DNA of 64,000 nucleotides from an uncultured Alphaproteobacteria bacterium (GTDB taxonomy: Bacteria; Pseudomonadota; Alphaproteobacteria; HIMB59; GCA-002718135). Each line of letters begins with the position of its first letter. The first letter of the stretch is position 1. The stretch covers positions 47,006 through 111,005 of the forward strand of contig CACJPV010000004.1 in NCBI GenBank assembly GCA_902595425.1, read 5' to 3'. The notes beneath the pieces are model-generated. The model was not told the origin of the DNA, searched no databases, and worked only from the letters and a program-made list of their open reading frames with translations. The position numbers were made by a program, and so were the translations under genes. Positions 1,303 through 35,381 of this stretch are shown in pieces.

Positions 1303-6342
<5,040 letters not shown>

Positions 6343-6379
6343 ACAAAAATAGATATATATTGATTATAATAAAATTTGA

Positions 6380-7141
6380 ATGAAATTAATTCATAAATTT
6401 AAATCACCAAATTTTAATAATAGAAACTCAAAAATCATTGAATTTGTTATAATTCATTATACTGCTCTTAATTCTACTGTAGAGTCAATAAATTATCTAT
6501 GTTCAAAAAAAAATAAAGTTAGTTGTCACTACCTTATATCTTCTGATGGCAAAATTTACAATTTGGTGCATGAAAATAAAAGAGCTTGGCATGCTGGTAA
6601 ATCATTTTGGAGAGAAAATTCAGACATTAATTCATCATCAATAGGTATAGAGTTAGATTATTCACCGTATGGAAATAATAACAAATATACAATCCAGCTT
6701 ATCAATTCTCTTTTAAAACTATTAAAAAGAATAGTAAAAAACCACAATATATTACCAATTAATATCCTAGGCCATTCTGATGTTGCCCCTTATCGTAAAA
6801 TTGATCCAGGAAAAACATTTCCATGGCATATTCTAGAGCATAATAATTTAATTAATAAAATTTATATTAGTAAAAATACTAAGATATTGCATAATATTAT
6901 TGATAAATGGTTTTTAAAACACAGAATTAAAACCAAAAAAAGAAGAATTTTATTTATGTTGAGCTATATTGGCTATGATATCTCTTTAGCATTAAAAAAA
7001 GACTTTTTTTTTAATATGCTGCTTGCTGCTTATGCTAGTAGATATAAATATTACAGTAACTATAATTATAACAAAAAAAATGTTGATAAAATTATTAAAA
7101 TCCATTTTTTAGAGATAATATTGACGAAATTAAAAAAATAA
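6380..7141 (+). CDS. N-acetylmuramoyl-L-alanine amidase (Amidase_2 / AmpD-type) with C-terminal extension
   Basis: 253 aa; FVIIHYTA...AWHAGKSFW...SSSIGIEL...GHSDVAPYRKIDPGKTFPW matches the zinc amidase_2 fold pattern. About 80 C-terminal residues are of unclear function. Confidence 0.75.
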   Translation: MKLIHKFKSPNFNNRNSKIIEFVIIHYTALNSTVESINYLCSKKNKVSCHYLISSDGKIYNLVHENKRAWHAGKSFWRENSDINSSSIGIELDYSPYGNNNKYTIQLINSLLKLLKRIVKNHNILPINILGHSDVAPYRKIDPGKTFPWHILEHNNLINKIYISKNTKILHNIIDKWFLKHRIKTKKRRILFMLSYIGYDISLALKKDFFFNMLLAAYASRYKYYSNYNYNKKNVDKIIKIHFLEIILTKLKK

Positions 7142-7155
7142 ATATATTTATGTCT

Positions 7156-7492
7156 AGATGATGCGATGATCGCTTGAGTTATCAAGAGGAAAGTCCGGGC
7201 TCCTCTGGAAAAAAAACCAGGTAACACCTGGCAAGTGAGAGCTTAGGGAAAGTGCAACAGAAAAAATACCGCCCTTATGGGTAAGGTTGAAATGGTGGGG
7301 TAAGAGCCTACCGCTTTTTTGGTAACAAAAAAGGCATGGCAAACCCTTTTTGGAGCAAGGTCAAATAGGAATAGCAATCAGTTCCAGCTGAGCTATTCGG
7401 GTAGACTGCTTGAGATAAATGGCAACATTTATCCTAGATTGATGATCATCATTTTACTTAGTAATTTACAGAACCCGGCTTATGCATCATCT
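7156..7492 (+). ncRNA. rnpB: RNase P RNA, bacterial type A
   Basis: Universally conserved GAGGAAAGTCCGGGCTC at 7186..7202 and ACAGAACCCGGCTTA at 7468..7482. Terminal P1 pairing of AGATGATGC (7156..7164) with GCATCATCT (7484..7492). The 62-aa minus-strand ORF in the track lies inside it. Confidence 0.9.
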
Positions 7493-7541
7493 TAAAAAAT
7501 ATAAGAACAAAACAGAAACATATGCATTATTTAGAAGTTAT

Positions 7542-9301: not shown

Positions 9302-10960
9302 ATGGGAAAAAGTATAAAATTTTTATTTGACTCTGATTCTTTAAAAAATTTTCATAAAAGAATTTTTTTTTCAGTTTTAGTTTTTTTGTTTTTCTTCTTA
9401 TCTGTTTTTTATAGAATTAGCTTTATAACTATATCAAGTTACTTTGATAATCCTACTGAAGTTCAATTAGAAAAAAAAGAAAATAGAGGGATTATTTATG
9501 ATAGAAATGGCATAGTACTGGCAGCATCAATAGAATCAAAATCATTGTCTGCTAGACCAAAATTTATAAATAATGCTAACCATTTGGCAAAAGAATTAAC
9601 AAAGATTATAGATATCGATGAAAATATACTAAAAGATAAACTATCAAGTGGAAAAAAATTTGTTTGGCTTAAAAGAAATATTACTCCCACTGAACATCAA
9701 AAAATAATTGATCTGGGAGAAATTAATTTAGAATTTCATAATGAAAGCAAAAGAATATATCCTTTTAAAAATAGTGCTTCTCATATTGTAGGATTTGTAA
9801 ATATTGATCAAATTGGTCAAAAAGGTATTGAAAGAAGCTTTAATCAAAACTTATCAAACGCAAAAAATGTAACCTTATCTATCGATATAAACCTTCAGCA
9901 ATCAATCAGGCATTATTTATTAGAAACTATAAGTCATTACAAAGCGGAGTCAGGTTTAGCAATAGTAATGGATATTTCAAATGGGCAAATTCTATCATCT
10001 GTAAGTTATCCAGACTTTGATCCAAATAATAATGACAGTTTTAGTAAAGACAACTTAATGAATAGGGTTATTCAAGCTAATTATGAAATGGGATCTACAT
10101 TCAAACCTTTAACAGCTGTTAATGGTTTTGATTATGGAATTATTGAACCAAATATGGTTTTTGATGTTAAAAAAAGTGTAAAAGGAGTAAAAGATCATGA
10201 CTCTTATAAAGGCGATGGTTTATACAACGTAGAAAAAATTGTTGTTGAGTCATCAAATATAGGTACTGCACAAATTGCCCTTAAAATTGGAAAAAAAAAT
10301 CAAAAAGAATTTCTTAAAAAATTAGGTTTTTTTGAAAAAATAGATACGGAACTTTTAGAAGTAGAAAAACCACTTGCAAACCCAAATAATTGGAGAGAGC
10401 ATGAAACAACAAGAATTGGTTTTGGTCATAGCTTTTCAATAACTCCACTTCATCTAGTTAAAGCTTATGCTTCACTTTCCAATAATGGTAATATTATAAA
10501 TCCTACTTTTGTTTTAAATTCTAAAAATAAAATATCTCAAAATATACTTTTAAGAGAAGATTCCTCCAAATATTTTTTAAATTTATTGAATGCAGTTATT
10601 ACTAAAACTAAGTTCACAGGCCCGAGGGTAAAAATTGAAGGGTATAATATAGGTGGTAAAACTGGAACATCAGAATTAATAGACTCGAGTGGTCGGTATT
10701 ATAAAGATAGAAATATGACTTCTTTTATAAGTGTATTTCCAATAAATAAACCTAAGTATGTAGTTTATACAGCAATAAGCTATCCCAAAAAACCCATAGA
10801 ATCTAATCAAAGGATGACAGGTGCTGTTGTAAATGCCCCTCTTGTAAAAAAAATAATATTTGAAATGATTAAAATTTTGAATTTGCCATCAATTAGACAT
10901 GATAATTTTATAAAAGCGGATATAAAACAAATTTATAAACCTGATTATGCTTTTCTCTGA
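9302..10960 (+). CDS. ftsI: Peptidoglycan D,D-transpeptidase FtsI (PBP3)
   Basis: 552 aa; N-terminal TM anchor; penicillin-binding motifs STFK, SSN and KTGT in the correct order; dcw position. Confidence 0.9.
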   Translation: MGKSIKFLFDSDSLKNFHKRIFFSVLVFLFFFLSVFYRISFITISSYFDNPTEVQLEKKENRGIIYDRNGIVLAASIESKSLSARPKFINNANHLAKELTKIIDIDENILKDKLSSGKKFVWLKRNITPTEHQKIIDLGEINLEFHNESKRIYPFKNSASHIVGFVNIDQIGQKGIERSFNQNLSNAKNVTLSIDINLQQSIRHYLLETISHYKAESGLAIVMDISNGQILSSVSYPDFDPNNNDSFSKDNLMNRVIQANYEMGSTFKPLTAVNGFDYGIIEPNMVFDVKKSVKGVKDHDSYKGDGLYNVEKIVVESSNIGTAQIALKIGKKNQKEFLKKLGFFEKIDTELLEVEKPLANPNNWREHETTRIGFGHSFSITPLHLVKAYASLSNNGNIINPTFVLNSKNKISQNILLREDSSKYFLNLLNAVITKTKFTGPRVKIEGYNIGGKTGTSELIDSSGRYYKDRNMTSFISVFPINKPKYVVYTAISYPKKPIESNQRMTGAVVNAPLVKKIIFEMIKILNLPSIRHDNFIKADIKQIYKPDYAFL

Positions 10961-12368
10961 TCTCAATAAAATTTTTGTTACTTCAAAGATCATAGGAAAA
11001 TTACCTAAAAAAAAAATAAAATTTATAAGTGATAATTCAAAAAATATAAGTGCTAATACACTTTTTGTTGTAAATAAAAATAAAAATTTTAAATTATCAT
11101 ATTTTCATGAGGCTATCTCAAAAAATTTAAATACTGTTCTAACTAATCGACATATTAAAAATTCAACGGTAAATCAAATTATTGTAAAAGACATTGATAA
11201 AGAAATTTTAAAGTTATTAAAAATTATAAAACCATTTCCACCTATATCTTCAGTTGCTATTACTGGTACTAATGGAAAAACTTCTTCCACCTGGTATCTT
11301 TCTCAAATTTGCAAAATAAATAAGTATCCTTCAAAATTAACAGGAACTCTTGGTTATTTTATTGATTTAAAAAAAATAAAAGAGTCGTCACTTACTACTC
11401 CAAGTAACTTAGATCTCTATCAATTCGCTTATTCAAGTAATAGAAAAAGTTATCATTATATATCAGAAGCTTCAAGTCACGGCCTTCATCAGGGACGCTT
11501 CAAAAATATAAAGATAGACATAGCTGCAATTACTAATATTTCTCACGATCACTTGGATTATCATGGAAATTTTAGTTCTTATGTAAATACTAAGCTCTCT
11601 CTATTTACAAAAATCTTAAATTCAAAAGGAGTAGCAGTGGTTAATTCAAATCTTAAAATTTATAAGATGATAAAAAAAAAATTAAAGAATAGAAAAATAA
11701 AAATGATTACTTATGGATCTGGAGATGTATACTTTTTTAAAAATAATTATTTATATTTATACATTTTTGGTAAAAAATTTAAGTTACAAAAATTTAATTT
11801 AGAAAACAATATCCAAAAAGAAAATTTAGAATGTGCAATAGCTTGTGCACTAGCTATGAAGATAAGTGCAAAAAAAATAATTCATTGTTTAAAAATGCTT
11901 AAATCTGCACCTGGTAGGTTTGAAACTATAAATTACAGGAAAAAAAACTCAAAAATAATAATAGATTATGCGCATACACCTGATGCTTTAGAAAATGTTT
12001 TGAAAAATTTTTCTGATGATAAATTTAAACCTTCTTTAGTTTTTGGATGTGGTGGAGATAGGGATAAACTTAAAAGAAGAAAAATGGGACTTGTTGCTGC
12101 AAGATATGCTAATAAAATTTATATAACTGATGATAATCCTAGAAATGAAAATCCAAAAAATATTAGAAAAACATTAAAAAAATATTGTCCAAACGGATTT
12201 GAAATTTCCAATAGAGAAAAAGCAATACTTTTAGCTATTTCTAATTTAGATATTAATGATACCCTTATAATTGCAGGAAAAGGTCATGAAAACTATCAAT
12301 TAATTAAGAATAAAAAAATTGATTTTAATGATTTTCAAATAGCAAAAAATATTATTTCACAATTATGA
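10947..12368 (+). CDS. murE: UDP-N-acetylmuramoyl-L-alanyl-D-glutamate--2,6-diaminopimelate ligase
   Basis: 473 aa; Mur ligase P-loop TGTNGKTS; TDDNPRNENP (DNPR motif typical of MurE); 14-nt overlap with ftsI. Confidence 0.9.
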   Translation: MLFSDLNKIFVTSKIIGKLPKKKIKFISDNSKNISANTLFVVNKNKNFKLSYFHEAISKNLNTVLTNRHIKNSTVNQIIVKDIDKEILKLLKIIKPFPPISSVAITGTNGKTSSTWYLSQICKINKYPSKLTGTLGYFIDLKKIKESSLTTPSNLDLYQFAYSSNRKSYHYISEASSHGLHQGRFKNIKIDIAAITNISHDHLDYHGNFSSYVNTKLSLFTKILNSKGVAVVNSNLKIYKMIKKKLKNRKIKMITYGSGDVYFFKNNYLYLYIFGKKFKLQKFNLENNIQKENLECAIACALAMKISAKKIIHCLKMLKSAPGRFETINYRKKNSKIIIDYAHTPDALENVLKNFSDDKFKPSLVFGCGGDRDKLKRRKMGLVAARYANKIYITDDNPRNENPKNIRKTLKKYCPNGFEISNREKAILLAISNLDINDTLIIAGKGHENYQLIKNKKIDFNDFQIAKNIISQL

Positions 12369-27609: not shown

Positions 27610-28239
27610 ATGAATAAACTAATTTTGCTAAGACATGGCCAAAGTCAATGGAATTTAGAAAACAAATTCACAGGTTGGAAAAATGTTCCTTTGACTGTAA
27701 ATGGTGAAATGGAGGCCAAAAAAGCAGGAGAATTATTTAAAAAAAACAAAATACACATTGATTATATCTTTAGTAGTGTTTTAGAGAGAGCTAATAAAAC
27801 GGCTGAAATTGCTATAAAAGAAGCTAATCTAACAAATCTCTTAGAAAATGATAAATTAATCATGAAACTCAGTGAAAAATTAAATGAGAGAGATTATGGG
27901 GACTTAGTAGGTTTAAATAAGAAGGAAACAGCCGAAAGATTTGGCAAAGAACAAGTTCATATTTGGAGACGATCTTTCGATACTCCTCCACCTAATGGTG
28001 AAAGTTTAAAAAATGTTGTTGAAAGAGTCTCTCCATATTTTCAAGATAATATAAAACCACTACTCGATCAAAATAAAAATATTTTGATTGTAGCTCATGG
28101 AAATTCTCTCAGAGCAATGATGATTGAGCTTGGAATGTACAAACCTGAAGAAATTTCTTCTATAGAACTTCCAACAGGTTCACCTTTATGCATTAATTTA
28201 AAAGAAGGTAAATTAGTTGATTTTTATTATTTAAACTAA
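27610..28239 (+). CDS. gpmA: 2,3-bisphosphoglycerate-dependent phosphoglycerate mutase
   Basis: 209 aa; phosphohistidine motif LLRHGQSQWN and second His motif VAHGNSLRA. Confidence 0.9.
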   Translation: MNKLILLRHGQSQWNLENKFTGWKNVPLTVNGEMEAKKAGELFKKNKIHIDYIFSSVLERANKTAEIAIKEANLTNLLENDKLIMKLSEKLNERDYGDLVGLNKKETAERFGKEQVHIWRRSFDTPPPNGESLKNVVERVSPYFQDNIKPLLDQNKNILIVAHGNSLRAMMIELGMYKPEEISSIELPTGSPLCINLKEGKLVDFYYLN

Positions 28240-28685
28240 TTTTTTTTGAAATTAGAAAACTTTATTACATTTGAATTATTATCTTTGTTTTTATTTTTTT
28301 TCAAAATTTCTTTTTTCTTTTTTTCTATTTTTTTATTAGAGTTGTTAAACTGGTAATTTAATCCAAAATTAGATGAAGGATCAACAAAAGAAATAATAGA
28401 GTCGTAAGAAATTTTTAAATCAGTTTTTTTATTGTTAAAGGAAAGTCCAATATTAAAAAAACTTTTATTTACGGATAGGTGATAATATTCATGCTGTATA
28501 ACAATAGTCATTTCATTGGGATATTTAAGTAAAAGCCAGTTTGGGACTTTGTTTTTAGAATTACTCGTTTTAAATGTTATGTATAAATGGTTTTTTCCAT
28601 CCAATCCATTTCTTTCAATTTTTTTCAATACATCTATAAAAACATTTAACAAATTTTTGTTTAAAATCTTTTGGTAATTAATCAT
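28236..28685 (-). CDS. sspB: SspB-like ClpXP adaptor (alphaproteobacterial stringent starvation protein B type)
   Basis: 149 aa; HLYITFKTSNSKNKVPNWLLLKYPNEMTIVIQHEYYHLSVNKSFFNIGLSFNNKKTDLKISYDSIISFVDPSSNFGLNY matches, from memory, the conserved core of alphaproteobacterial SspB (H.YITF.T...V.P..L...YP.EMTIV.QH......V....F...LSF......L.I......F.DPS..F.L). Lys-rich C-terminal tail. Not verified by alignment. Confidence 0.6.
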   Translation of the reverse strand: MINYQKILNKNLLNVFIDVLKKIERNGLDGKNHLYITFKTSNSKNKVPNWLLLKYPNEMTIVIQHEYYHLSVNKSFFNIGLSFNNKKTDLKISYDSIISFVDPSSNFGLNYQFNNSNKKIEKKKKEILKKNKNKDNNSNVIKFSNFKKN

Positions 28686-28797: not shown

Positions 28798-31242
28798 ATG
28801 ACAAAAAACTTACCTAGTTCATGTAAAGTAGTAGTAATTGGTGGAGGTGTTGCAGGCTGTTCCACTGCATACCATTTGGCTAAGTTTGGCTGGAAAGATA
28901 CAGTTTTACTTGAAAGAGATGTGCTTACTTCAGGTACTACATGGCATGCAGCAGGATTAATAGGTCAACTTGGTTCAAGTGCAACAATTACAAAACTTAG
29001 AAACTATTCATTGAATTTATATAAACAATTAGAAGAAGAGACGGGATTATCAACAGGATTAAAACAAAACGGTTCTCTTACAGTAGCTACAACAACAGAT
29101 AGACTTGAAGAACTAAAAAGACAGGTTACTTTTGCTCAACGATTTAAAATTGAAGCTAAAGAAGTCAATAAAGATGAAATAAAAGAAATTTATCCTCTAA
29201 TAAATGTTGACGATCTTGTTGGAGGTGTTTTTATTCCAAGAGATGGACAAGCAGATCCTGTAGGCGTAGCAAACGTAATGGCAAAAGCAGCAAAACAAAA
29301 TGGTGCTACAATAATTGAAAAATGCCCAGTAAAAAAAATAATAATAAAAAATAATAAAATTGCAGGAGTTGAAACTAATTTTGGAAAGATAGAATGTGAA
29401 TATGTTGTTTTAGCTACAGGTATGTGGTCTAGGCAGATTGCCAAAGATATAGATGTTAGTATACCTCTTTATCCAGATGAACATTTTTACATATTAAGTG
29501 AGCCTATTGCAGATATAGATAGATCACTCCCTGTTTTGAGAGATTATAACAATTGCCTTTATTTAAAGGAAGATGCAGGAAAGTTACTAGTAGGTGTTTT
29601 CGAACCAAATGCAAAACCTGCCTTTACAAATAATCATAAAGTTCCTGATGATTTTTCATTTGGCGAATTGCCAGAGGATTTTGATCATTTTGAGCCATAC
29701 TTGATTAATGCAATGAACCGTGTCCCAGGTTTAGAAAAATCTGGTATAAGAAAATTTTTTAATGGTCCTGAGTCATTTACCCCTGACACAAACTATTTAT
29801 TAGGTGAAACTCCAGAGGTTAGAAATCTGTTCATGTGCGGTGGTTTTAATAGTATTGGAATTGTTAGTTCAGGCGGGGCAGGTAAGATTACAGCTGAATG
29901 GATGATGAATGGTGAAATTCATGAAGATATTTTTTCACTTGATATTTCAAGATTTGAAAAATTTCACTCAGATTTAGATTTTATAACTGAGAGGGTTACT
30001 GAAACACTTGGTAATTTGTATGCAATGCATTGGCCTTTTAAACAACACACAACTTCAAGAAACCAAAAACTTATGCCTTATCATGAATATTTGATAAAAA
30101 AAGGAGCTTGTTTTGGACAAGCAGCTGCTTATGAAAGACCAATGTGGTATGCAATAAATGGTAAAGAGCCAAAATATAAGTATAGTTATGGATACCAAAA
30201 TTGGTTTGACTCTGCTGAACACGAAACTCTTAATGCAAGAAAAAATGTAGCCCTGTTTGAGTTATCACCTTTTGCTAAGTTCGAATTATCAGGAGTGAAT
30301 AGTCATGAGTCCCTTCAATACTTATGTGCAAATGATATTAAACATAATGTTGGTGCCGTTACATACACACAAATGCTTAACTCCAAAGCTGGAATTGTGT
30401 CAGATTTAACAGTTACATGCATTGAAGAAAACAAATTTAGGATTGTTACAGGATCTGGTGTTCGGACACATGATAAAAAACATATTTTAAAATATTTAGA
30501 ATCAACAGTTAATTTTAAAGATATAACCCATGATTTTGCATGTTTTGGTATTTTTGGACCTAAGAGTAGAGATTTATTGACTGAAATATTTGGTGGGTAT
30601 TTTTCAAATGATGATTTCAAATTTGGTACAGGTAAAAAAATTATTAAAAATAATATTGAATTATGGTTTCAAAGAATATCTTATGTTGGGGAACTTGGTT
30701 GGGAAATTTATATACCGACTCAAAAATCAAAAGAGATATATGAATTAATAATTAATTTAGAAAAAAAATTCGGATTAGTTCATGCAGGTGCACATGCAAT
30801 GGATATCATGAGAATGGAAAAAGGTTATTTACATTGGGGACATGATATTTCTCCTGCTGAAAATCCTTATGAGGCAGGACTGGGATTTGCAATTAAACTT
30901 AATAAAAAAGAAAATTTTATTGGTAAGGAATTTTTAATTAAGAATAAACACATACGAAAAAAGAAATTGTTGATGTTTGTTTTAAATGACACAACGCCAG
31001 GGAATCCATTGTTACTTCATGATGAACCAATTTATTATAATGGAAAAATAGTTGGTGAAACAACTTCAGGAAACTATTCTTTTATATATAAAAAAAATTT
31101 AGCTTATGGTTATGTTAAAAGTAACCTAGACTATGAAACATCTGATTCATTTTTTGAGATAGAGATTGCTAAGAAAAAATACAGGGCTTCAGTAATAAAA
31201 AAATCACTACATGATCCAGAAAATAATTTTATTAGAAATTAA
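28798..31242 (+). CDS. FAD-dependent dimethylglycine/sarcosine dehydrogenase-type enzyme (DAO domain fused to GcvT-like folate-binding aminomethyltransferase domain)
   Basis: 814 aa; N-terminal VVVIGGGVAGCSTAYHLA dinucleotide-binding motif and DAO region. The C-terminal half has GcvT-like architecture (...ISYVGELGWEIY...). Exact substrate not assignable from sequence. Confidence 0.85.
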   Translation: MTKNLPSSCKVVVIGGGVAGCSTAYHLAKFGWKDTVLLERDVLTSGTTWHAAGLIGQLGSSATITKLRNYSLNLYKQLEEETGLSTGLKQNGSLTVATTTDRLEELKRQVTFAQRFKIEAKEVNKDEIKEIYPLINVDDLVGGVFIPRDGQADPVGVANVMAKAAKQNGATIIEKCPVKKIIIKNNKIAGVETNFGKIECEYVVLATGMWSRQIAKDIDVSIPLYPDEHFYILSEPIADIDRSLPVLRDYNNCLYLKEDAGKLLVGVFEPNAKPAFTNNHKVPDDFSFGELPEDFDHFEPYLINAMNRVPGLEKSGIRKFFNGPESFTPDTNYLLGETPEVRNLFMCGGFNSIGIVSSGGAGKITAEWMMNGEIHEDIFSLDISRFEKFHSDLDFITERVTETLGNLYAMHWPFKQHTTSRNQKLMPYHEYLIKKGACFGQAAAYERPMWYAINGKEPKYKYSYGYQNWFDSAEHETLNARKNVALFELSPFAKFELSGVNSHESLQYLCANDIKHNVGAVTYTQMLNSKAGIVSDLTVTCIEENKFRIVTGSGVRTHDKKHILKYLESTVNFKDITHDFACFGIFGPKSRDLLTEIFGGYFSNDDFKFGTGKKIIKNNIELWFQRISYVGELGWEIYIPTQKSKEIYELIINLEKKFGLVHAGAHAMDIMRMEKGYLHWGHDISPAENPYEAGLGFAIKLNKKENFIGKEFLIKNKHIRKKKLLMFVLNDTTPGNPLLLHDEPIYYNGKIVGETTSGNYSFIYKKNLAYGYVKSNLDYETSDSFFEIEIAKKKYRASVIKKSLHDPENNFIRN

Positions 31243-31340: not shown

Positions 31341-31389
31341 TGGGGACAACTGGTACCTTTATAGTTGGGGAGGGTCAGTTGCCTTGTTC
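31341..31389 (-). repeat. ssrA-3'-end-like repeat, copies F1/F2 (most degenerate)
   Basis: TGGGGACAACTGGTACC (31341..31357) and TTGGGGAGGGTCAGTTGCCTTGTTC (31365..31389). F2 resembles copy E (shared GGGG..TTGCCTTGT). Lies just downstream of the last cassette gene. Confidence 0.4.
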
Positions 31390-31397
31390 TTTAAAAT

Positions 31398-31805
31398 TTA
31401 TTTTAGACTTTCTAGGTAGGATAACAAATTATTAATTTTTACAAATTCGCAAAGACCAATTGGAAATATTTCTCTAGTTGTAAATCCTCCTCCAGTCATT
31501 GTCCAAACGTCAACTCTCAAAGAATTAAGTTCAATAGAATAAACTCTATCTCTTATGTTATCTTCATTTGAGAATATATTGATGTAAGAGAGTTTTAAAT
31601 CTACATCATAGTAATATTCATTAATTGTAGTTATTTTATTAATATCTGTATTAATGACTTTCACTCTATTAGAGGAAATAAATTCAAATCCTGATAGTAA
31701 TGTAGGACAAAATAATTGATTATCTGAAAAATCTTTTTTTGTAAAAGCTGTAGATGATGAGGAATAAAAAATTATAAATATAAAAATTAATATTTTTTCT
31801 TTCAT
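31398..31805 (-). CDS. Hypothetical small secreted protein (cassette gene)
   Basis: 135 aa; N-terminal signal peptide MKEKILIFIFIIFYSSSSTAF; no recognisable family. ATG lies 7 nt from repeat copy E. Confidence 0.6.
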   Translation of the reverse strand: MKEKILIFIFIIFYSSSSTAFTKKDFSDNQLFCPTLLSGFEFISSNRVKVINTDINKITTINEYYYDVDLKLSYINIFSNEDNIRDRVYSIELNSLRVDVWTMTGGGFTTREIFPIGLCEFVKINNLLSYLESLK

Positions 31806-31812
31806 ATCAAAA

Positions 31813-31840
31813 TGGGGCGGCTTACTGTTGCCTTGTGTGC
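31813..31840 (-). repeat. ssrA-3'-end-like repeat, copy E
   Basis: TGGGGCGGCTTACTGTTGCCTTGTGTGC. Aligns to the ssrA-end 23-mer with small insertions. Occupies most of the 58-nt gap between two cassette genes. Confidence 0.55.
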
Positions 31841-31863
31841 TAAAATTGTGAATTTAAAATTAA

Positions 31864-32226
31864 TTATTTAATCTTTTCCCACTCAGCAATTCCCCCAGTA
31901 ATATTTTTAACATTTTTAATACCCATATCTTGCATTGTTTTAGTTGCCAAAGTACCTTGTCCGCCTACACCACAAAAAACAACATATTCTTTTTCTGGGT
32001 TTTTTTTGAAAAAATCATTTTCTAAAGGACTACCTTCAGCCAAATAAAACTCAAGAAACGCTTTATCTAAATGCATTGCATTTCCAATAGTTCCCTTAGA
32101 AAAACTTTCTTTATCTCTTACGTCAATAAATTGAACATTTGGATCATTTAATTTATCTTTTGCTTCTGAAGCGCTTATATTTTCAATTTCATTTTTCACA
32201 CTCATCAAATCTTCAAATTTTTTCAT
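31864..32226 (-). CDS. Single-domain rhodanese-like sulfurtransferase (cassette gene)
   Basis: 120 aa; rhodanese fold pattern (FIDVRDKESFSKGTIGNAMHL ... VVFCGVGGQGTLATKTM ... GGIAEW) with active-site Cys loop CGVGGQG. AGGAG lies upstream of the ATG. Confidence 0.85.
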   Translation of the reverse strand: MKKFEDLMSVKNEIENISASEAKDKLNDPNVQFIDVRDKESFSKGTIGNAMHLDKAFLEFYLAEGSPLENDFFKKNPEKEYVVFCGVGGQGTLATKTMQDMGIKNVKNITGGIAEWEKIK

Positions 32227-32238
32227 ATTACTCCTATT

Positions 32239-32292
32239 AGTTTAGTATTGGGCGTTCTGCGCCCAATGCATGAACTAAACTATCAGAAACTT
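32239..32292 (-). repeat. ssrA-3'-end-like repeat, copy D (long form, palindromic)
   Basis: Core TTGGGCGTTCTGCGCCCAATGC (32248..32269), about 18/23 to the ssrA end. AGTTTAGT+ATTGGGCG (32239..32254) pairs with CGCCCAAT (32260..32267) and ACTAAACT (32274..32281). The extension ATGAACTAAACTATCAGAAACTT parallels copy B. Confidence 0.7.
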
Positions 32293-32373
32293 AAAAATTT
32301 ATAAGCAAAAAATAAAAAAAATTTCTCTCAGTGAGACTATAATGCGACCAGAATATTTATGTTAAAGAAATTT

Positions 32374-32943
32374 TTATGAAAAGAACGAACGCTTCTTTTT
32401 TTTGTCTTTTTCAATATTTGTAGTTTCCTCTTTTTGATTCTCTTTTTTTTCATTAGTCATCAAAGAAATAGTATTTAACTTTTGGGTGTTTATTGTTTTT
32501 TTTAGATGTGAGATTTTGTCAACTAATTTTTGATCAGCTTTTGTGCAATGTAAATCTGAATAAACACTAGCCCCCTCTTCAATAGAGATTACATCATATC
32601 TAAGGGTGCCAACTACAGTAGCAGTTTTTTTTATTGTTGCTTTTCCATTAACTTGGATACCTCCACTCACTGATCCATGTATTTCAATATGATCACATGT
32701 AATTGGTCCAATAATTTCTGCAACAGAGCCAACGTAAATAATTTTTGAGTGAATACTTGTCTCAACTTTTCCGTATATTTCAATATAGTCAGTATTAATA
32801 TCAGAACCTTTAAAAGATGTTCCACTCCCAATAACCATTTTATTAGGATTATCTCCAACACGATCATTTTTACTTAAAAAAACTTGTTTACCTTCATCAA
32901 CAATGTTGTCAGTTAAAGTTTCTAATTTTGTTTTTTTATCCAT
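32374..32943 (-). CDS. Bactofilin-family cytoskeletal protein (cassette gene)
   Basis: 189 aa; central beta-helical bactofilin (DUF583) repeat pattern VIGSGTSFKGSDINTDYIEIYGKVETSIHSKIIYVGSVAEIIGPITCDHIEIHGSVSGGIQVNGKATIKKTATVVGTLRYDVISIEEGASV; disordered Lys/Glu-rich tail. Confidence 0.85.
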   Translation of the reverse strand: MDKKTKLETLTDNIVDEGKQVFLSKNDRVGDNPNKMVIGSGTSFKGSDINTDYIEIYGKVETSIHSKIIYVGSVAEIIGPITCDHIEIHGSVSGGIQVNGKATIKKTATVVGTLRYDVISIEEGASVYSDLHCTKADQKLVDKISHLKKTINTQKLNTISLMTNEKKENQKEETTNIEKDKKKKRSFFS

Positions 32944-33043
32944 ATATCGATAAGGCTCGTACTACCAAATAACGTCAATTGCAATACCTCAATTAGGATT
33001 TTGTTACTTTAGAGTTTATGTAAAATTGTATACAACTTTTGAA

Positions 33044-33066
33044 TAGGGTATTCTGTTGCTCGGTGC
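33044..33066 (-). repeat. ssrA-3'-end-like repeat, copy C
   Basis: TAGGGTATTCTGTTGCTCGGTGC, 19/23 identical to the ssrA end, same orientation, in the gap between the methyltransferase and bactofilin genes. Confidence 0.7.
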
Positions 33067-33079
33067 TTTAACATAGGCA

Positions 33080-33715
33080 CTATAATTTTTTACGAAATAT
33101 ACAAGCAAATATCTCAACTTCGTTATATATTTTATTAATATTTTTAGCATGTGCACTAAATTTTTCAAATAAAGGGGTAGATATCAAATTATTAATTTTA
33201 ATAAATTTTTCTTTAAAGCCAGCTTTAACAAAAAATTTTGAATTAATAGATAAAACAAATAAACCTCCAGGTTTTACAATTCGTAAAAGTTCATCTAATG
33301 CATCTGGACCAACATGACCGTGAGTAAAAGTTCCAGCACTTACTACTGCTCCAATTGAATTATCTTCCAAAGGAATTTTTTTAGTAATATCTGCTTCTAT
33401 TAGAGATGAATAACATTTTTTTAATTTTGCCTGATGCAACATATCAGAAGATATATCTATTCCGATAATTTCTTTTTTATTATTAATTTTAAGGAATTTT
33501 CCAACTAAACCAGTTCCTGCGCCAACATCAAGTATTGGAGTATCAGTATTTTTTGAATTTTTTAAAAAAAAATTGCTAATTTTTTGTGGTGAAAGATAAT
33601 TAGAGCTTTTAGCAAAATCCTCATCGTAACTTTTTGCCCATTTCTTATATAATTTTACAGAGTCATCAGGTGTTTGTAATGAATATGCCTCATCAAGTTT
33701 TATTTTATTTACCAT
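33080..33715 (-). CDS. Class I SAM-dependent methyltransferase (cassette gene)
   Basis: 211 aa; motif I ILDVGAGTGLVG, post-I IGIDISSDML, motif IV-like AVVSAGTF. ATG lies 8 nt from repeat copy B. Confidence 0.85.
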   Translation of the reverse strand: MVNKIKLDEAYSLQTPDDSVKLYKKWAKSYDEDFAKSSNYLSPQKISNFFLKNSKNTDTPILDVGAGTGLVGKFLKINNKKEIIGIDISSDMLHQAKLKKCYSSLIEADITKKIPLEDNSIGAVVSAGTFTHGHVGPDALDELLRIVKPGGLFVLSINSKFFVKAGFKEKFIKINNLISTPLFEKFSAHAKNINKIYNEVEIFACIFRKKL

Positions 33716-33723
33716 ACTTTTAG

Positions 33724-33770
33724 TGGGGCGTTCTGTTGCCCGGTGCGTGAACCAAACTAACAGAAAACTT
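33724..33770 (-). repeat. ssrA-3'-end-like repeat, copy B (long form)
   Basis: TGGGGCGTTCTGTTGCCCGGTGC at 33724..33746 is 23/23 identical to 35018..35040. The following GTGAACCAAACTAACAGAAAACTT parallels copy D and partly (CCAAAC) the ssrA sequence. Confidence 0.9.
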
Positions 33771-33800
33771 GACTTTTTTATATCATAAATTTGAATTTTT

Positions 33801-33834
33801 TTAAATTTACTCCGGCGAGATTACGGCGAGTATT
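33801..33834 (+). repeat. GC-rich direct repeat R2, left copy
   Basis: TTAAATTTACTCCGGCGAGATTACGGCGAGTATT shares the blocks TTAAA, ACTCCGGC and ACGGCGA with 34932..34968. Internal CGGCGAG-N5-CGGCGAG. Confidence 0.7.
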
Positions 33835-34029
33835 TTGGTTAGAATTAAGATATGTTAGTAATAACTTATGAAACAAAAGGATTTAGAATTAAAATTTAAT
33901 CTAAAGTTAACTAGGGAAGAATTTTATTCTGTCAGAGATTTAAATCATAACGAAATTCCATTTAAGATTTAGGAGATAAAAAAAAGCCATATAAATCCAA
34001 GTGAAAATTTAAAGAGAGAAATTTATAGA

Positions 34030-34482
34030 TTGCATAAAGAAGTTGTTAATAGCAAAGTATTATCAGATAATAAAAAAGAAAAGACTTTAAATATTTTATT
34101 GGCATACGAACCATGGAGTTGGAGAGTGGTGGGTATTTCAAAAAAAGCAATCAAAATGTTTAAAGCAAATAAATTTAGAAAACTTAAAAAGGACGGCCCC
34201 CAAAGAGATCATTATTTTCAAGAAAGAAATGTAACTATTAGAAAAATGATGGAGAAAGTCATGCCATTTGAAACTTGGTGGGATTGGTTTTGGGAAAATG
34301 ATAGAACTTTAATTATTACCAAAGAAGAACATGCAAAAAAAAGTCTAGATTATAAAAATGACATAATCAAAATTGATAATAATTTAGGTCTTTTTAGGAC
34401 TATGAAAACAGTAGGTTATTCTTTTTATCCAGATTATGAAGCTAAGCTCGTAGAGAAATTATCAAAAGAATATAATTTGTGA
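34030..34482 (+). CDS. Hypothetical protein (start uncertain; possibly a 5'-disrupted gene beginning at 33868)
   Basis: 150 aa from TTG 34030; Trp-rich and basic (EPWSWRVVGISKKAIKMF...PQRDHYFQERN...WWDWFWENDRTLIITKEEHAKK). No in-frame ATG for about 40 codons. The frame is open back to a TAG at 33970, and upstream of that TAG an ATG-initiated 34-codon ORF (33868..33972) is in the same frame. Confidence 0.5.
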   Translation: MHKEVVNSKVLSDNKKEKTLNILLAYEPWSWRVVGISKKAIKMFKANKFRKLKKDGPQRDHYFQERNVTIRKMMEKVMPFETWWDWFWENDRTLIITKEEHAKKSLDYKNDIIKIDNNLGLFRTMKTVGYSFYPDYEAKLVEKLSKEYNL

Positions 34483-34500
34483 ATATGATATAATATACGA

Positions 34501-34890
34501 ATGGATCAGATAGGAATATGGAGATTATTTATAAAAGAAAAAGATGAAAACGATGCTTTCAAATTAATTAAATTAATCGACTTTTCAAATTTTCAGATAG
34601 CTAATGAGGATTTAACATTAAAAGAAGTGCCAAATTTAGAAAATTGTCATGAATTACATATTAGTCAATTTGCTTTAACTTACAACGCAAACAATGATAA
34701 AGAATTATATGATAAGTATCACAAAATATATGATGAGTATTTTGAAGAAGGAAAACATAAAAATTCCTTACAACATTTAAGAGCATTATTGTTTTTTTTA
34801 CAAAGACAAGAACATTTTTCTGGTCCTTCAGAAAGCTATATTCCTTTTAGTAAAAAAATTATTTCTGATATCATTAAAATACTAAAATGA
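34501..34890 (+). CDS. Hypothetical protein (second gene of the two-gene module)
   Basis: 129 aa; ATG start 18 nt after the previous stop; no family recognised (C-terminal LRALLFFLQRQEHFSGPSESYIPF). Confidence 0.6.
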   Translation: MDQIGIWRLFIKEKDENDAFKLIKLIDFSNFQIANEDLTLKEVPNLENCHELHISQFALTYNANNDKELYDKYHKIYDEYFEEGKHKNSLQHLRALLFFLQRQEHFSGPSESYIPFSKKIISDIIKILK

Positions 34891-34931
34891 GTTCGTTTAA
34901 TATTATTTTTGCAATTATATTCTATTTAAGC

Positions 34932-34968
34932 TTAAACTTCACTCCGGCATAGCTACGGCGAAAATAAT
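34932..34968 (+). repeat. GC-rich direct repeat R2, right copy
   Basis: TTAAACTTCACTCCGGCATAGCTACGGCGAAAATAAT; direct repeat of 33801..33834. Lies between the two-gene module and the ssrA 3' end. Confidence 0.7.
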
Positions 34969-35017
34969 CCAAATATAAAAAATACCTATATTAATAAAGA
35001 TATTTTAAGATTTATAA

Positions 35018-35265
35018 TGGGGCGTTCTGTTGCCCGGTGCCCCAAACCGCGCTAGCCTAGAATCTAGGCAGCGATAGCTAATCTATTATCGTTAGCGTTT
35101 ATAAAAATAACCCGATAACGGTGGTATAATGCCGAGCAAAGTCTTTATCTTTTAGTCAACGTCAAACCTATTTCGCCCCCATAGTTTTTATGGTGGAGGC
35201 GCCGGGTACCGCCCCCGGGTCCGCATAACCTATTACATAAAGCATTTATTGCTATAGTTGATAAA
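35018..35265 (-). ncRNA. ssrA: Two-piece (circularly permuted) tmRNA gene; both outer ends approximate
   Basis: Read on the minus strand. The acceptor piece ends ...CCGGG-GGCGGTA-CCCGG-CGCCTCC-ACCA (3' end at 35191). A 10-nt spacer TAAAAACTAT follows (35190..35181). The coding piece starts GGGGGCGAAATAGGTTTGACG (5' end at 35180), and GGGGGCG pairs with CGCCTCC including a G3-U pair. Tag frame 35096..35064 is GCT AAC GAT AAT AGA TTA GCT ATC GCT GCC TAG = ANDNRLAIAA*. The stop codon lies in the hairpin GCCTAG-ATT-CTAGGC (35069..35055). Confidence 0.85.
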
Positions 35266-35381
35266 TCAACATTTCTTTTATAAACCAAAGTTAACTATCA
35301 AGAAAGTTTTGAATTATTTAATATAATATTTTCTAAAAATCTGTTGTTTACATTAGGTTTTAGTGAAATAAGATTTTTCTG

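Follow-up and report, generated by a model that had tools for sequence, protein, structure and literature searches.

The 3' end of the tmRNA gene ssrA in a streamlined marine bacterium is a landing site at which small segments of foreign DNA, most of them single genes, were inserted serially, and the locus is an additive, tycheposon-like tmRNA island of integrase-less, CIME-like cassettes. The DNA analysed (the window) is a stretch of 64,000 nt from contig CACJPV010000004.1 (GCA_902595425.1; positions 47,006-111,005, forward strand) of an uncultured Alphaproteobacteria bacterium of the HIMB59 lineage (GCA-002718135), which was compared with at least 13 HIMB59/AEGEAN-169-like relatives (24 genome loci) and 49 marine metagenome contigs. 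This kind of island is already known; the present example has unusually small units and lacks an integrase. We consider it highly probable that the ssrA end serves as attB for a phage-type tyrosine integrase, that the array grew through serial Campbell insertions, and that its cassettes use an integrase supplied in trans.

The ssrA gene (35016..35309, minus strand) encodes a permuted, two-piece alphaproteobacterial tmRNA that matches the full Rfam model RF01849 alpha_tmRNA (positions 1-355) with 234.8 bits; ARAGORN also predicts a permuted tmRNA here, with the tag ANDNRLAIAA. Downstream, the gene closes with the 3' end of its coding piece rather than with the tRNA-like CCA end. A sequence-only reading of this DNA had assigned a 23-nt string to this downstream end, and the Rfam alignment agrees, with the 23-mer at 35018-35040 matching the conserved last positions of the model. 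The exact 23-mer is present twice in the 64 kb (33724 and 35018) compared with zero expected occurrences. Degenerate copies were sought by scanning the entire window on both strands with gaps allowed (maximum score 46); five matches scored at least 25 compared with none in 12 Markov shuffles. All degenerate copies lie on the plus strand, and the core recurs in the orientation of the ssrA copy, four times clearly and once in degraded form. Every copy in the window is intergenic and the scan found no other convincing copy on either strand of the 64 kb, both as previously supposed.

Copy A (35018..35040, plus strand, as are all the copies that follow) is the exact 23-mer inside ssrA and is read as a functional att site, either attB or the attR of the newest cassette. 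Copy B (33724..33746) matches it at 23/23 positions and copy C (33044..33066; repeat family D1) at 19/23 with a score of 30, while copies D (32247..32269; score 25) and E (31813..31840; score 27) are degraded, the former with one gap and the latter with indels. Copy D contains a perfect 8-bp palindrome and folds at -19.3 kcal/mol (z -4.3). The strongly degraded copy F (31365..31389; score 19) is the distal border of the array, and by score alone it is at noise level, two unrelated matches in the window reaching 21-22. This copy is the left boundary of a cassette for a 135-aa protein that is core-flanked in relatives (perfect in L008, good in L010 and L003), and we accept it because it aligns to the cores bounding the same cassette there. 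Of the five further copies originally proposed, four stand as clear sites and the fifth is carried by homology, not by score. A possible additional att relic at 31341..31357 (plus strand; TGGGGACAACTGGTACC) is putative and lies below every threshold applied; no homologous boundary for this fragment was found in the relatives.

Cassette 1, the newest (33747..35017, plus strand; 1271 bp), lies between the two perfect cores and holds two ORFs opposite to ssrA (34030-34482, 150 aa; 34501-34890, 129 aa), neither of which has a match in Pfam, NCBIfam or PHROG. Its alpha-type right arm (33747-33835) is common to L007, L013 and ~35 metagenome contigs, where it accompanies different cargo. The distal arm contains a tandem 11-nt motif, ACTCCGGCGAGATTACGGCGAG (33809..33830, plus strand; direct repeat family D8), of which a related copy lies in the proximal arm at 34941-34962, and these are candidate arm-type integrase-binding sites; 9 other cassettes have the same TTACGRCGAGATTACGRCGAG motif at a distance of 60-85 nt from the core. 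The remaining cassettes are on the minus strand. Cassette 2 (33067..33723) carries a SAM-dependent methyltransferase gene (33080-33715; Pfam Methyltransf_11, 9e-18) whose ATG is 8 nt from copy B, and cassette 3 (32270..33043), which has an alpha-type arm at 32270-32295, carries a bactofilin gene (32374-32943; Pfam Bactofilin, 2e-17). Cassette 4 (31841..32246) encodes a single-domain rhodanese (31864-32226; Pfam Rhodanese, 1e-20). Cassette 5 (31390..31812) encodes the 135-aa protein (31398-31805), which has an N-terminal hydrophobic signal-like segment, was assigned no family in family searches, and has its ATG 7 nt from copy E. The Pfam matches confirm the rhodanese, bactofilin and methyltransferase calls made beforehand. 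The rhodanese cassette has probably been resident longest or was an ancestral neighbor of ssrA; its start codon lies ~20 nt from a core copy in 11/11 relatives that have the gene, this core being ssrA itself in L011, L021 and L023, and the gene is missing from L008-L010.

Across the 24 genome loci and 49 metagenome contigs, extra core copies occur only on the 3' side of ssrA and are always co-oriented, with no contig carrying both orientations. Inter-copy intervals have a median of 1084 bp (n = 55), and the units measure 0.4-1.5 kb with up to 6-7 per array. Genomes differ in which cassettes they carry, in how many and in what order, and content varies even among close relatives, most strongly beside ssrA; thyA DNA of L001 and L007 is 92.5% identical, yet L007 has an extra proximal cassette. 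Decay of the core with distance is not strictly monotonic in every relative. The search of relatives therefore found what the sequence-only reading had anticipated for a serial site-specific insertion hotspot at the ssrA 3' end, namely copies confined to the ssrA-proximal locus with differing gene content between the flanks, and its description of the units as small and, in the source genome, devoid of an integrase is borne out.

Several cassettes (those for the secreted 135-aa protein, the bactofilin, the methyltransferase and a 194-aa ORF, fam22) recur at different array positions. The ~420-bp 135-aa unit, with both boundaries kept, adjoins ssrA in L008 and L010, is proximal to the rhodanese in L003, and is distal in L001, L007 and L009. 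The order of the 135-aa ORF and the bactofilin is reversed between the window and L008, in which the bactofilin cassette is inverted. Cassettes have also spread horizontally, their DNA being far closer between hosts than housekeeping DNA. The methyltransferase cassette, core-flanked in L016, has 81.8% DNA identity to that of the window compared with 74.3% for thyA and 72.8% for folA; the whole bactofilin cassette is 90.9% identical to L016 and 89.4% to L009 (thyA 79.3% between the window and L009); and the fam22 cassette reaches 90.3% against 74.0% for housekeeping DNA.

No integrase of the relevant family is encoded within the 64-kb window (tblastn) and none was found in any array-bearing locus examined. 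In L002 and L025-L037 the ssrA core is followed 100 nt downstream by a tyrosine integrase (PF00589, 1.8e-25; phrog_1, 9e-45), with thyA-folA-ssrA-int synteny throughout, and no displaced core was found within 6-10 kb in these integrase-bearing loci. Horizontal movement of this integrase is shown by L025 and L026, between which 1.2 kb of DNA, an integrase-only unit, is 100% identical, compared with protein identities of 80% for thyA, 73% for folA and 70% for mrp. At the far end of this unit no att copy can be recognised, and therefore its movement is not a textbook Campbell insertion. The previously suggested search for the core beside a tyrosine-integrase gene led to a 9.7-kb element, circular or tandem (L038, L039 and L040; assembled period 9700, 1 mismatch), that carries int, a DUF5906 primase and copper-related genes. 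Its attP includes a block of 44 nt that matches the 3' end of ssrA perfectly and lies 100 nt upstream of int, and the copy A 23-mer equals the first 23 nt of this block in L038. An integrase-less fam22 cassette (L001) has a ~90-nt arm that is ~93% identical to the int-side arm of the 9.7-kb element. Junctions of int, core and a non-ssrA flank in L034, L041, L052, L083 and L085 would fit integrase units that newer insertions have displaced, or may instead represent attP. A search for an integrase partner of the alpha-type arms in the window's newest cassette found none, and integrase-less mini-cassettes were never seen in circular form.

In the mechanism that we propose, the terminal ~15-44 nt of ssrA would act as the chromosomal attB for a family of elements using phage-type tyrosine integrases in HIMB59/AEGEAN-169-like marine alphaproteobacteria. 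Each integration would be a Campbell-type crossover, most likely inside GGGGC|GTTCTGTT, where we place it because this is the sole block common to every cassette class. The incoming element would give ssrA a new 3' end, and the older core copy would be displaced outward along with all earlier insertions. The window would then record at least five insertion events, the newest beside ssrA between perfect copies and the oldest beside the dehydrogenase gene, where the copies have decayed. The integrase-less one- or two-gene cassettes of the window retain att sequences at both ends, as CIMEs do, and their excision, reinsertion and exchange between lineages would most likely be driven by an integrase supplied in trans from transient relatives, that is, the 1.2-kb integrase-only unit and the 9.7-kb int/primase episome. 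Read-through from ssrA, which had been put forward as a general route of expression, does not serve as one because 37/57 cassettes across the population face away from ssrA; judged by gene placement, it is possible for co-oriented genes with an ATG abutting an att copy (135-aa ORF, methyltransferase, rhodanese).

It is possible, though we doubt it, that the cassettes are dead remnants of full-size integrase-bearing elements that kept one cargo gene and att scars, with no trans-mobilisation and with the apparent reshuffling due to independent acquisitions and deletions. The tycheposon model predicts degenerate leftovers piling up at the tRNA (bioRxiv 10.1101/2020.12.28.424599), the fam22 cassette has the int-side arm of the 9.7-kb element where int would be expected, arrays and integrase were never found together on one contig, and mini-circles are absent from our observations. 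However, the 135-aa, bactofilin, methyltransferase and fam22 units share their ends across 20-26% diverged lineages at different ranks, which argues against remnants because independent decay would not produce identical ends. Noncoding arms are ~90% conserved between hosts that are 74% identical, and ~35 cassettes with unrelated cargo have one common ~90-nt alpha arm with a conserved tandem motif, an arm more suggestive of a maintained recombination site than of a scar.

Maintenance and reshuffling mainly by homologous recombination, as in a replacement-type flexible island anchored by its flanks (ssrA and the dehydrogenase gene) and the short cores with a purely historical site-specific step, is improbable. 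The lack of an integrase in array-bearing genomes is in keeping with it, as are the very high recombination rates reported for SAR11-like bacteria and the homologous recombination proposed for other HIMB59 islands (PMC10734472), but every junction falls on the same nucleotides within a core of 13-23 nt, a length insufficient for efficient RecA exchange. The existence, precisely at the ssrA site, of a dedicated integrase that is horizontally mobile and has a matching attP also speaks against it, and the right halves of the cores co-vary with the cassette, as an attP-derived half-site predicts: the right half-core of the 135-aa cassette is GCCTTG in copy F, L003 and L010, GCCCGG in L008, and degraded variants in L001, L007 and L009. 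We find it very hard to credit that the repeats are functional RNA or DNA structures (terminators, processing sites, REP-like elements) copied from the hairpin at the tmRNA 3' end. Of the copies in the window, the two of the alpha class form stable hairpins (z -2.6 and -4.3), but the remaining copies fold no better than shuffles, and the 25 alpha sites compared show no covariation (paired cells 84.5% versus 83.7% shuffled; 2 pairs change on both sides, which 154/500 shuffles equal or exceed). A terminator scan of the region gave one match (plus strand, 33062-33081), overlapping copy C by a few bases, and no terminator-like match on the minus strand after the cassette genes. The sequence-only reading had itself named a dispersed REP-like element and a structured RNA with conserved gene order as alternatives; the motif is limited to one locus, downstream of ssrA, and gene content between copies is hypervariable with changing order.

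Like integron arrays, which the sequence-only reading took the locus to resemble, the insertions attributed here to serial use of the ssrA end form linear stacks of tiny, mostly single-gene units at one site, with some promoterless genes abutting the recombination site and an order shuffled among strains. Integron identity was nevertheless rejected: the associated integrase is phage-type, scoring 37 bits against the integron-integrase model (cutoff 265), the repeats are copies of the target-gene end and not attC, the locus has no IntI, attI or attC and no resident integrase, and gene orientation is mixed, the majority opposing ssrA. CIMEs, known from ICESt-type accretion in Streptococcus, are non-autonomous, with att at both ends and no integrase, and sit in tandem with related integrase-bearing elements on the same att, for which trans- or cis-mobilisation has been proposed. 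The HIMB59 cassettes likewise have att at both ends, lack an integrase and are related to integrase-bearing elements. CIMEs typically span several kb, are few per site and are tied to conjugative elements, whereas the HIMB59 units are far smaller, stack in longer arrays and have no conjugation functions.

The claim that no system of this form had been described was too strong, since comparable islands, including tycheposon islands at the tmRNA gene and additive islands with recurring tRNA-3'-end repeats and some units of only 330 bp, appear in published accounts (PMC10872708, PMC11796062, bioRxiv 10.1101/2020.12.28.424599). Prochlorococcus tycheposons and the islands built from them (Hackl et al., bioRxiv 10.1101/2020.12.28.424599) share a tyrosine integrase at the tRNA/tmRNA-proximal end, an optional primase-type replication module, cargo modules, partial-tRNA repeats from successive integrations, outward displacement of older elements by newer ones, heterogeneity peaking at the tRNA, and elements that are rare and transient relative to islands. 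They differ in host clade, and in place of full elements or shapeless debris the window has single-gene cassettes that lack an integrase and have maintained arms. Among the additive islands of PMC10872708 and PMC11796062, fGI-2 of 'Ca. Methylopumilus' repeats the final 20 nt of tRNA-Lys, and partial tRNA repeats mark SAR11 islands at tRNA/tmRNA genes. As described there, these additive islands resemble the HIMB59 locus in their streamlined planktonic hosts, fixed tRNA-type gene, ~20-nt gene-end direct repeats parting variable units (some of a few hundred bp), mostly function-unknown genes and usual lack of an integrase in the island. The HIMB59 target is unlike theirs in being the 3' end of a permuted tmRNA coding piece, and the cognate integrase, attP episome, conserved arms and reshuffling traced here are not reported for additive islands in the passages of those papers covered by the comparison.

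The tmRNA gene ssrA occupies positions 35309..35016 on the minus strand of the window, where the alphaproteobacterial tmRNA model of Rfam (RF01849, 234.8 bits) matches at full length and where ARAGORN also calls a permuted tmRNA. In a permuted tmRNA gene the CCA end of the tRNA-like part is internal, so that ssrA terminates downstream with the 3′ end of its coding piece; the 23-mer at 35018-35040, the core, matches the conserved last positions of the RF01849 model (...ACCuGGCAACAGAAacCucCA). This exact 23-mer occurs twice in the 64 kb (29% GC) against an expected zero, and a gapped scan of both strands returned degenerate plus-strand copies ending at 33066 (score 30/46), 32269 (25/46) and 31840 (27/46), together with one at 31365-31389 (19/46). 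At a score of at least 25 there were five matches in the window and none in 12 Markov shuffles. The copy at 31365-31389 scores no higher than two unrelated matches elsewhere in the window; it was accepted because it forms the left border of the cassette encoding a 135-aa protein, whose homologous border carries a perfect core in L008 and a good one in L010 and L003 (L001-L089 are loci fetched from relatives and metagenomes). A fragment at 31341-31357 is a possible further core relic. Every core copy in the window lies on the plus strand between genes, and the exact and gapped scans, the shuffles and this homology together confirm the observation of the sequence-only reading that co-oriented copies recur between genes at ssrA. 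Pfam supports the rhodanese, bactofilin and SAM-methyltransferase genes of the array as well as the flanking DAO/GCV_T dehydrogenase, folA and thyA genes; an exact-sequence look-up of the 129-aa ORF in the newest cassette, which adjoins ssrA, found no record. The closest relatives of the window come from MAGs and single-cell genomes that carry the label HIMB59 or uncultured Alphaproteobacteria. Elsewhere in the window, a class A bacterial RNase P RNA is encoded at 7154-7498 on the plus strand (RF00010, 304 bits).

With thyA as a handle, 24 loci were retrieved from species-representative genomes, and all 24 keep the right flank ssrA-folA-thyA-mrp in synteny. The island on the 3′ side of ssrA ranges from ~0.4 kb to more than 8 kb, with ORF families that are mostly singletons. 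Extra ssrA 3′ cores were present in at least 10 of the 24 loci, all of them co-oriented and between ssrA and the left flank, and none was found to the right of ssrA across the 24. A metagenome scan that used one junction type yielded 49 marine contigs, on which the recognizable genes are rhodanese, the 135-aa ORF, methyltransferase, bactofilin, dehydrogenase, ssrA or an integrase. None of 80 non-redundant contigs carried the core in both orientations, and neighboring copies are separated by a median of 1084 bp (range 371-9791 bp, n = 55 intervals). The single orientation, restricted placement and interval sizes imply that the motif is locus-specific and that small units are usual in the HIMB59-like clade. 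As in Islander-type islands, an intact target gene is accompanied by co-oriented displaced 3′-end fragments at the unit borders, in the window and in relatives, and site occupancy differs among related genomes. With copies confined to one locus and variable content in relatives, the claim of serial att-site accretion at ssrA proved right.

About half of the 49 contigs (L041-L089) end within ~100 nt of a core copy, suggesting that short-read assemblies routinely break at the repeat and that MAGs probably contain too few such arrays. Three loci of a more distant subclade (L019, L020 and L023) are without the DAO/GCV_T dehydrogenase (28798-31242 in the window) and their island adjoins a homologue of the window gene at 28236-28685, so the left border of the variable region is not fixed. 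In L006, a 316-aa ORF with no Pfam match (5882-6832, minus strand) lies between the 5′ side of ssrA and folA, the side not expected from an att mechanism, and a homologue of it lies inside the island of L018 (8170-9042).

Wherever the ~420-bp unit carrying the 135-aa ORF lies on the ssrA strand, its two boundaries are identical (core|TTTGAAATTTATTTTAGAC...CATATyAAA|core). It is distal in the array in the window, L001, L007 and L009, adjoins ssrA directly in L008 and L010, and in L003 is closer to ssrA than the rhodanese gene is. Relative to this unit the bactofilin cassette is on the ssrA side in the window and L009, and on the far side and inverted in L008. The rhodanese gene is not present in L008-L010; where it occurs, ~20 nt always separate its start codon from a core copy, which in L011, L021 and L023 is that of ssrA itself, and rhodanese may thus be the ancestral neighbor past which all other units were inserted. 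For whole-cassette DNA, including noncoding ends, we compared identities with those of housekeeping genes from the same genome pairs. The bactofilin cassettes of the window and L016 are 90.9% identical, compared with 74.3% for thyA and 72.8% for folA, and the fam22 cassettes (a family of 194-aa ORFs) of L001 and L016 are 90.3% identical, compared with 74.0% for thyA; the methyltransferase cassette reaches 81.8% against 74.3% for thyA. Identities so far above those of the flanking housekeeping genes indicate, as judged by sequence comparison, that cassettes have been exchanged horizontally between lineages. Differences between close relatives lie mainly beside ssrA; L001 and L007, whose thyA genes are 92.5% identical in DNA, differ by one extra proximal cassette in L007.

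Only (A/T)TGGGGCGTTCTGTT is common to all junction classes, and the sequence that follows this block is set by the cassette on its right. The alpha class of cassette arm reads GCCCGGTGC GTGAACCAAACTAACAGAAAAC, a diverged copy of the ssrA interior; the class of the 135-aa cassette reads GCCTTGTGC TTTGA..., the gamma class reads GCyCGGTGC GTGAAnnnGTGCTCAT..., and in a short form divergence begins immediately after GTT. The right half of the core likewise tracks the cassette. For the 135-aa cassette, the left border has GCCTTG in the most distal window copy (31365-31389), L003 and L010, GCCCGG in L008, and degraded variants in L001, L007 and L009. This pattern fits a Campbell crossover, in which the displaced copy would combine the chromosomal left half with an attP-derived right half from the element. 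Because the right half travels with the cassette, we infer that strand exchange takes place within or just left of GTTCTGTT.

Alpha arms are ~90 nt long and common to ~35 cassettes with unrelated cargo; at a distance of 60-85 nt from the core they contain a tandem motif, TTACGRCGAGATTACGRCGAG. A GC-rich 11-nt motif, ATTACGRCGAG, is conserved as two tandem copies in the arms of cassettes with unrelated cargo and is found in the window, L007 (8071), L009 (9084), L059, L061, L071, L072, L078, L079 and L087; in the newest window cassette the tandem motif occurs near both ends (33809-33830 and 34941-34962). By analogy, this layout matches the arm-type binding sites of lambda-like integrases, making the repeats candidate sites of this kind. 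Other arm classes have short repeats of their own (GTGTGCACAGAGCGTGCAC, AACTTCGTGC in two copies, and TACGCGTGA). The alpha-class copies of the window (33724-33768 and 32247-32292) are imperfect palindromes in which TTCTGTT of the core pairs with AACAGAA of the arm, and their hairpins are stable (z of -2.6 and -4.3).

A tyrosine recombinase of 336 aa (PF00589, 1.8e-25) is encoded in L002, 100 nt downstream of the ssrA core and co-directional with ssrA; the same 100-nt distance separates int from the core in L025-L037. Its best match is phrog_1 (9e-45), identifying it as a phage-type integrase, and its scores as XerC, XerD or integron integrase all fall far below the respective NCBIfam cutoffs. 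There are 764 homologues at E<=1e-10, the best 120 of which are 64-91% identical, and the contexts examined take two forms, thyA-folA-ssrA-int or int beside a core copy followed by non-ssrA sequence. L025 and L026 share 1.2 kb of DNA that is 100% identical, consists of int with ~100 nt of flank before and after it, and extends to the ssrA core. Between these two hosts, identity is only 80% for ThyA, 73% for FolA and 70% for Mrp at the protein level; the integrase is thus horizontally mobile. L002, a further background in which thyA is 74% identical, has an integrase that is 91% identical. This integrase-only unit (L025 reverse-complement 9905-11111; L026; L002 950-2143) has no copy of the ssrA core at its int-distal end (...CCTATAAAG / ...CCTATAAAGATATT), which we read as the stop of a possible 26-codon hydrophobic ORF after int. 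In L029, ~150 nt of the int-distal end recur as a direct repeat 2.1 kb apart (reverse-complement 3330-3480 and 5530-5680) that brackets a 151-aa ORF and a TauD-family gene, and this duplication may mark another type of recombination site next to int.

The same integrase family occurs on a 9.7-kb element. Two contigs, L038 (1-17024) and L039, from TARA and JGI samples, are concatemers with a 9700-bp period and one mismatch between copies, which points to a circular or tandem element, and L040, an 8.6-kb contig from another JGI sample, holds a single copy. The element encodes an integrase 70% identical to that of L002, a DUF5906/primase protein (phrog_1156) and a copper-type cargo (cytochrome c, CsoR-like repressor, cupredoxin, DUF4396 and DsbA-like thioredoxin), and 100 nt upstream of int it matches the ssrA 3′ end without a difference over 44 nt. 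An attP with the same core beside a tyrosine-integrase gene, as anticipated by the sequence-only reading, was thereby found, and a cognate integrase and an attP sharing an identity block with the target gene, as in Islander-type islands, are present together on a mobile element. The integrase-less fam22 cassette beside ssrA in L001 has a ~90-nt arm, including the GTGCACACAGCGTGCAC motif, that matches the int-side arm of the 9.7-kb element at ~93% identity, which links the mini-cassettes to autonomous elements.

The cognate integrase was not found by tblastn in the 64-kb window or the array-bearing loci, nor were displaced cores found within 6-10 kb of int in the integrase-bearing loci, even with up to two mismatches to the 13-nt block. 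We found no circular form of a mini-cassette and, among all fetched loci, no integrase-bearing partner of the alpha arms. Scans of viral contigs (IMG/VR) for the core and for the integrase were empty, and the alpha-arm tandem motif gave only two chance matches there, on contigs of 52-53% GC; these scans thus provide no evidence that known phages carry the attP.

Four of the five window cassettes are co-oriented with ssrA. Three ATGs in the window lie 7-21 nt from an att copy, leaving no space for a promoter, and in L008, L010 and L011 such genes directly follow ssrA. A consensus scan found no intrinsic terminator after ssrA. Putative read-through from ssrA fits these three window genes and the arrangement in L008, L010 and L011. 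Population-wide, however, 37 of 57 cassettes are directed away from ssrA, with 100-300 nt of arm preceding the start codon.

Several other origins for the array were weighed. Homologous recombination alone does not explain it, since the junctions are fixed at the same nucleotides of a 13-23-nt core, the half-sites are linked to the cassette, and a matching integrase and attP exist. A role of the repeats as a structured RNA or REP-like element is contradicted by the data: the motif is found at a single locus, and a dispersed repeat of the REP/BIME type was rejected because there is neither spread over unrelated intergenic regions nor mixed orientation. Good folding is limited to the alpha-class copies, and among 25 alpha sites the paired cells amount to 84.5% versus 83.7% when shuffled, with two pairs changed on both sides; folding, covariation and the terminator scan thus led us to reject a terminator or structured RNA. 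Xer-dependent (IMEX-like) integration was considered because the window has no integrase, and was set aside given a dedicated integrase with a matching attP at the site and a core that on inspection is without a dif-like layout.

We lean, if by a modest degree, towards trans-mobilization of the integrase-less cassettes of the window, the best-supported reading of these data. That they are inert remnants seems to us rather unlikely. It is possible, though less likely than not, that the integrase-less units form a true cassette system, not debris, with a pool of maintained att sites, a roaming integrase and ssrA read-through. In such a system, a population-wide pool of 0.4-1.5-kb single-gene modules, each with a maintained two-armed att, would be excised, exchanged and re-inserted at the tmRNA gene by the 1.2-kb int-only unit or the 9.7-kb episome, and those members that are promoterless and co-oriented would depend for expression on read-through from ssrA, which is strongly transcribed. 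If true, a tmRNA gene and a phage-type integrase would together make up a functional integron analogue in a streamlined clade.

HIMB59/AEGEAN-169 and SAR11-type bacteria rank among the most abundant cells in the ocean. The locus points to an active, site-specific route of gene gain in the HIMB59 clade, with a defined attB within ssrA, an integrase that moves horizontally, and tiny cassettes that form a common pool and pass between lineages 20-30% diverged. The core and arm sequences, the integrase sequences and the candidate episome are reagents for testing trans-mobilization of integrase-less cassettes.

Likening the array to an integron went too far, as both the integrase and the site are of the wrong type. 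Integrons have an IntI-type integrase beside the site, whereas the window has none and the integrase of its relatives reaches 37.5 bits on TIGR02249, for which the cutoff is 265. Integron attC sites are cassette-specific imperfect palindromes recombined as folded single strands; the window repeats, unlike these, are direct copies of the ssrA end in which a hairpin is possible in the alpha class only and without covariation. Integron cassettes are promoterless, co-oriented with a platform promoter and read from it; here 4 of 5 cassettes are co-oriented in the window and 37 of 57 in the population face the opposite direction. The integron reading was thus rejected on a phage integrase (phrog_1) and sites that are ssrA-end copies.

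The claim of novelty was also too broad, since similar additive islands at tRNA and tmRNA genes are published (bioRxiv 10.1101/2020.12.28.424599, PMC10872708 and PMC11796062). An additive island of 'Ca. Methylopumilus' has units of 330 bp-42 kb set apart by repeats of the last 20 nt of tRNA-Lys (PMC10872708); the islands of SAR11 lie at a tmRNA gene and at seven tRNA genes, some with partial tRNA repeats that were interpreted as cassette insertion, and one integrase only was found (PMC11796062). Prochlorococcus tycheposons target six tRNA genes and the tmRNA gene and displace older elements outward, leaving degenerate remnants, and tycheposon-like elements are reported in Alphaproteobacteria too (bioRxiv 10.1101/2020.12.28.424599). 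The tRNA/tmRNA-proximal end of a tycheposon carries an inward-facing, site-specific recombinase of the tyrosine or large serine type, which the window does not have; relatives of the window resemble tycheposons in having int immediately downstream of ssrA and co-directional with it, and the optional replication module and cargo are present in the L038 element but not in the cassettes of the window. In the Islander survey, the tmRNA gene is the most enriched target, arrays of three or more units number 4 in 2168 genomes, and an integrase is needed per unit (PMC4383910); the window units and array-bearing loci have none by tblastn, so Islander would not call the window units, and integrase-requiring island finders would miss such arrays (PMC4383910). 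For HIMB59 itself, an island study reports borders that lack IS elements and tRNA genes and hence invoked homologous recombination, and mentions neither tmRNA nor integrases (PMC10734472); Grote et al. 2012 likewise mention neither. The two-piece-tmRNA target, the tiny integrase-less cassettes with maintained arms and the minimal roaming integrase seem undescribed for a HIMB59-type clade. As in a CIME, all five window units have att at both ends and no recombinase or transfer genes. A CIME also has att arms in common with an autonomous element at the same site; for the alpha arms of the window cassettes no integrase-bearing partner was found among the fetched loci, and the fam22 cassette of L001 matches L038 at ~93% over ~90 nt.
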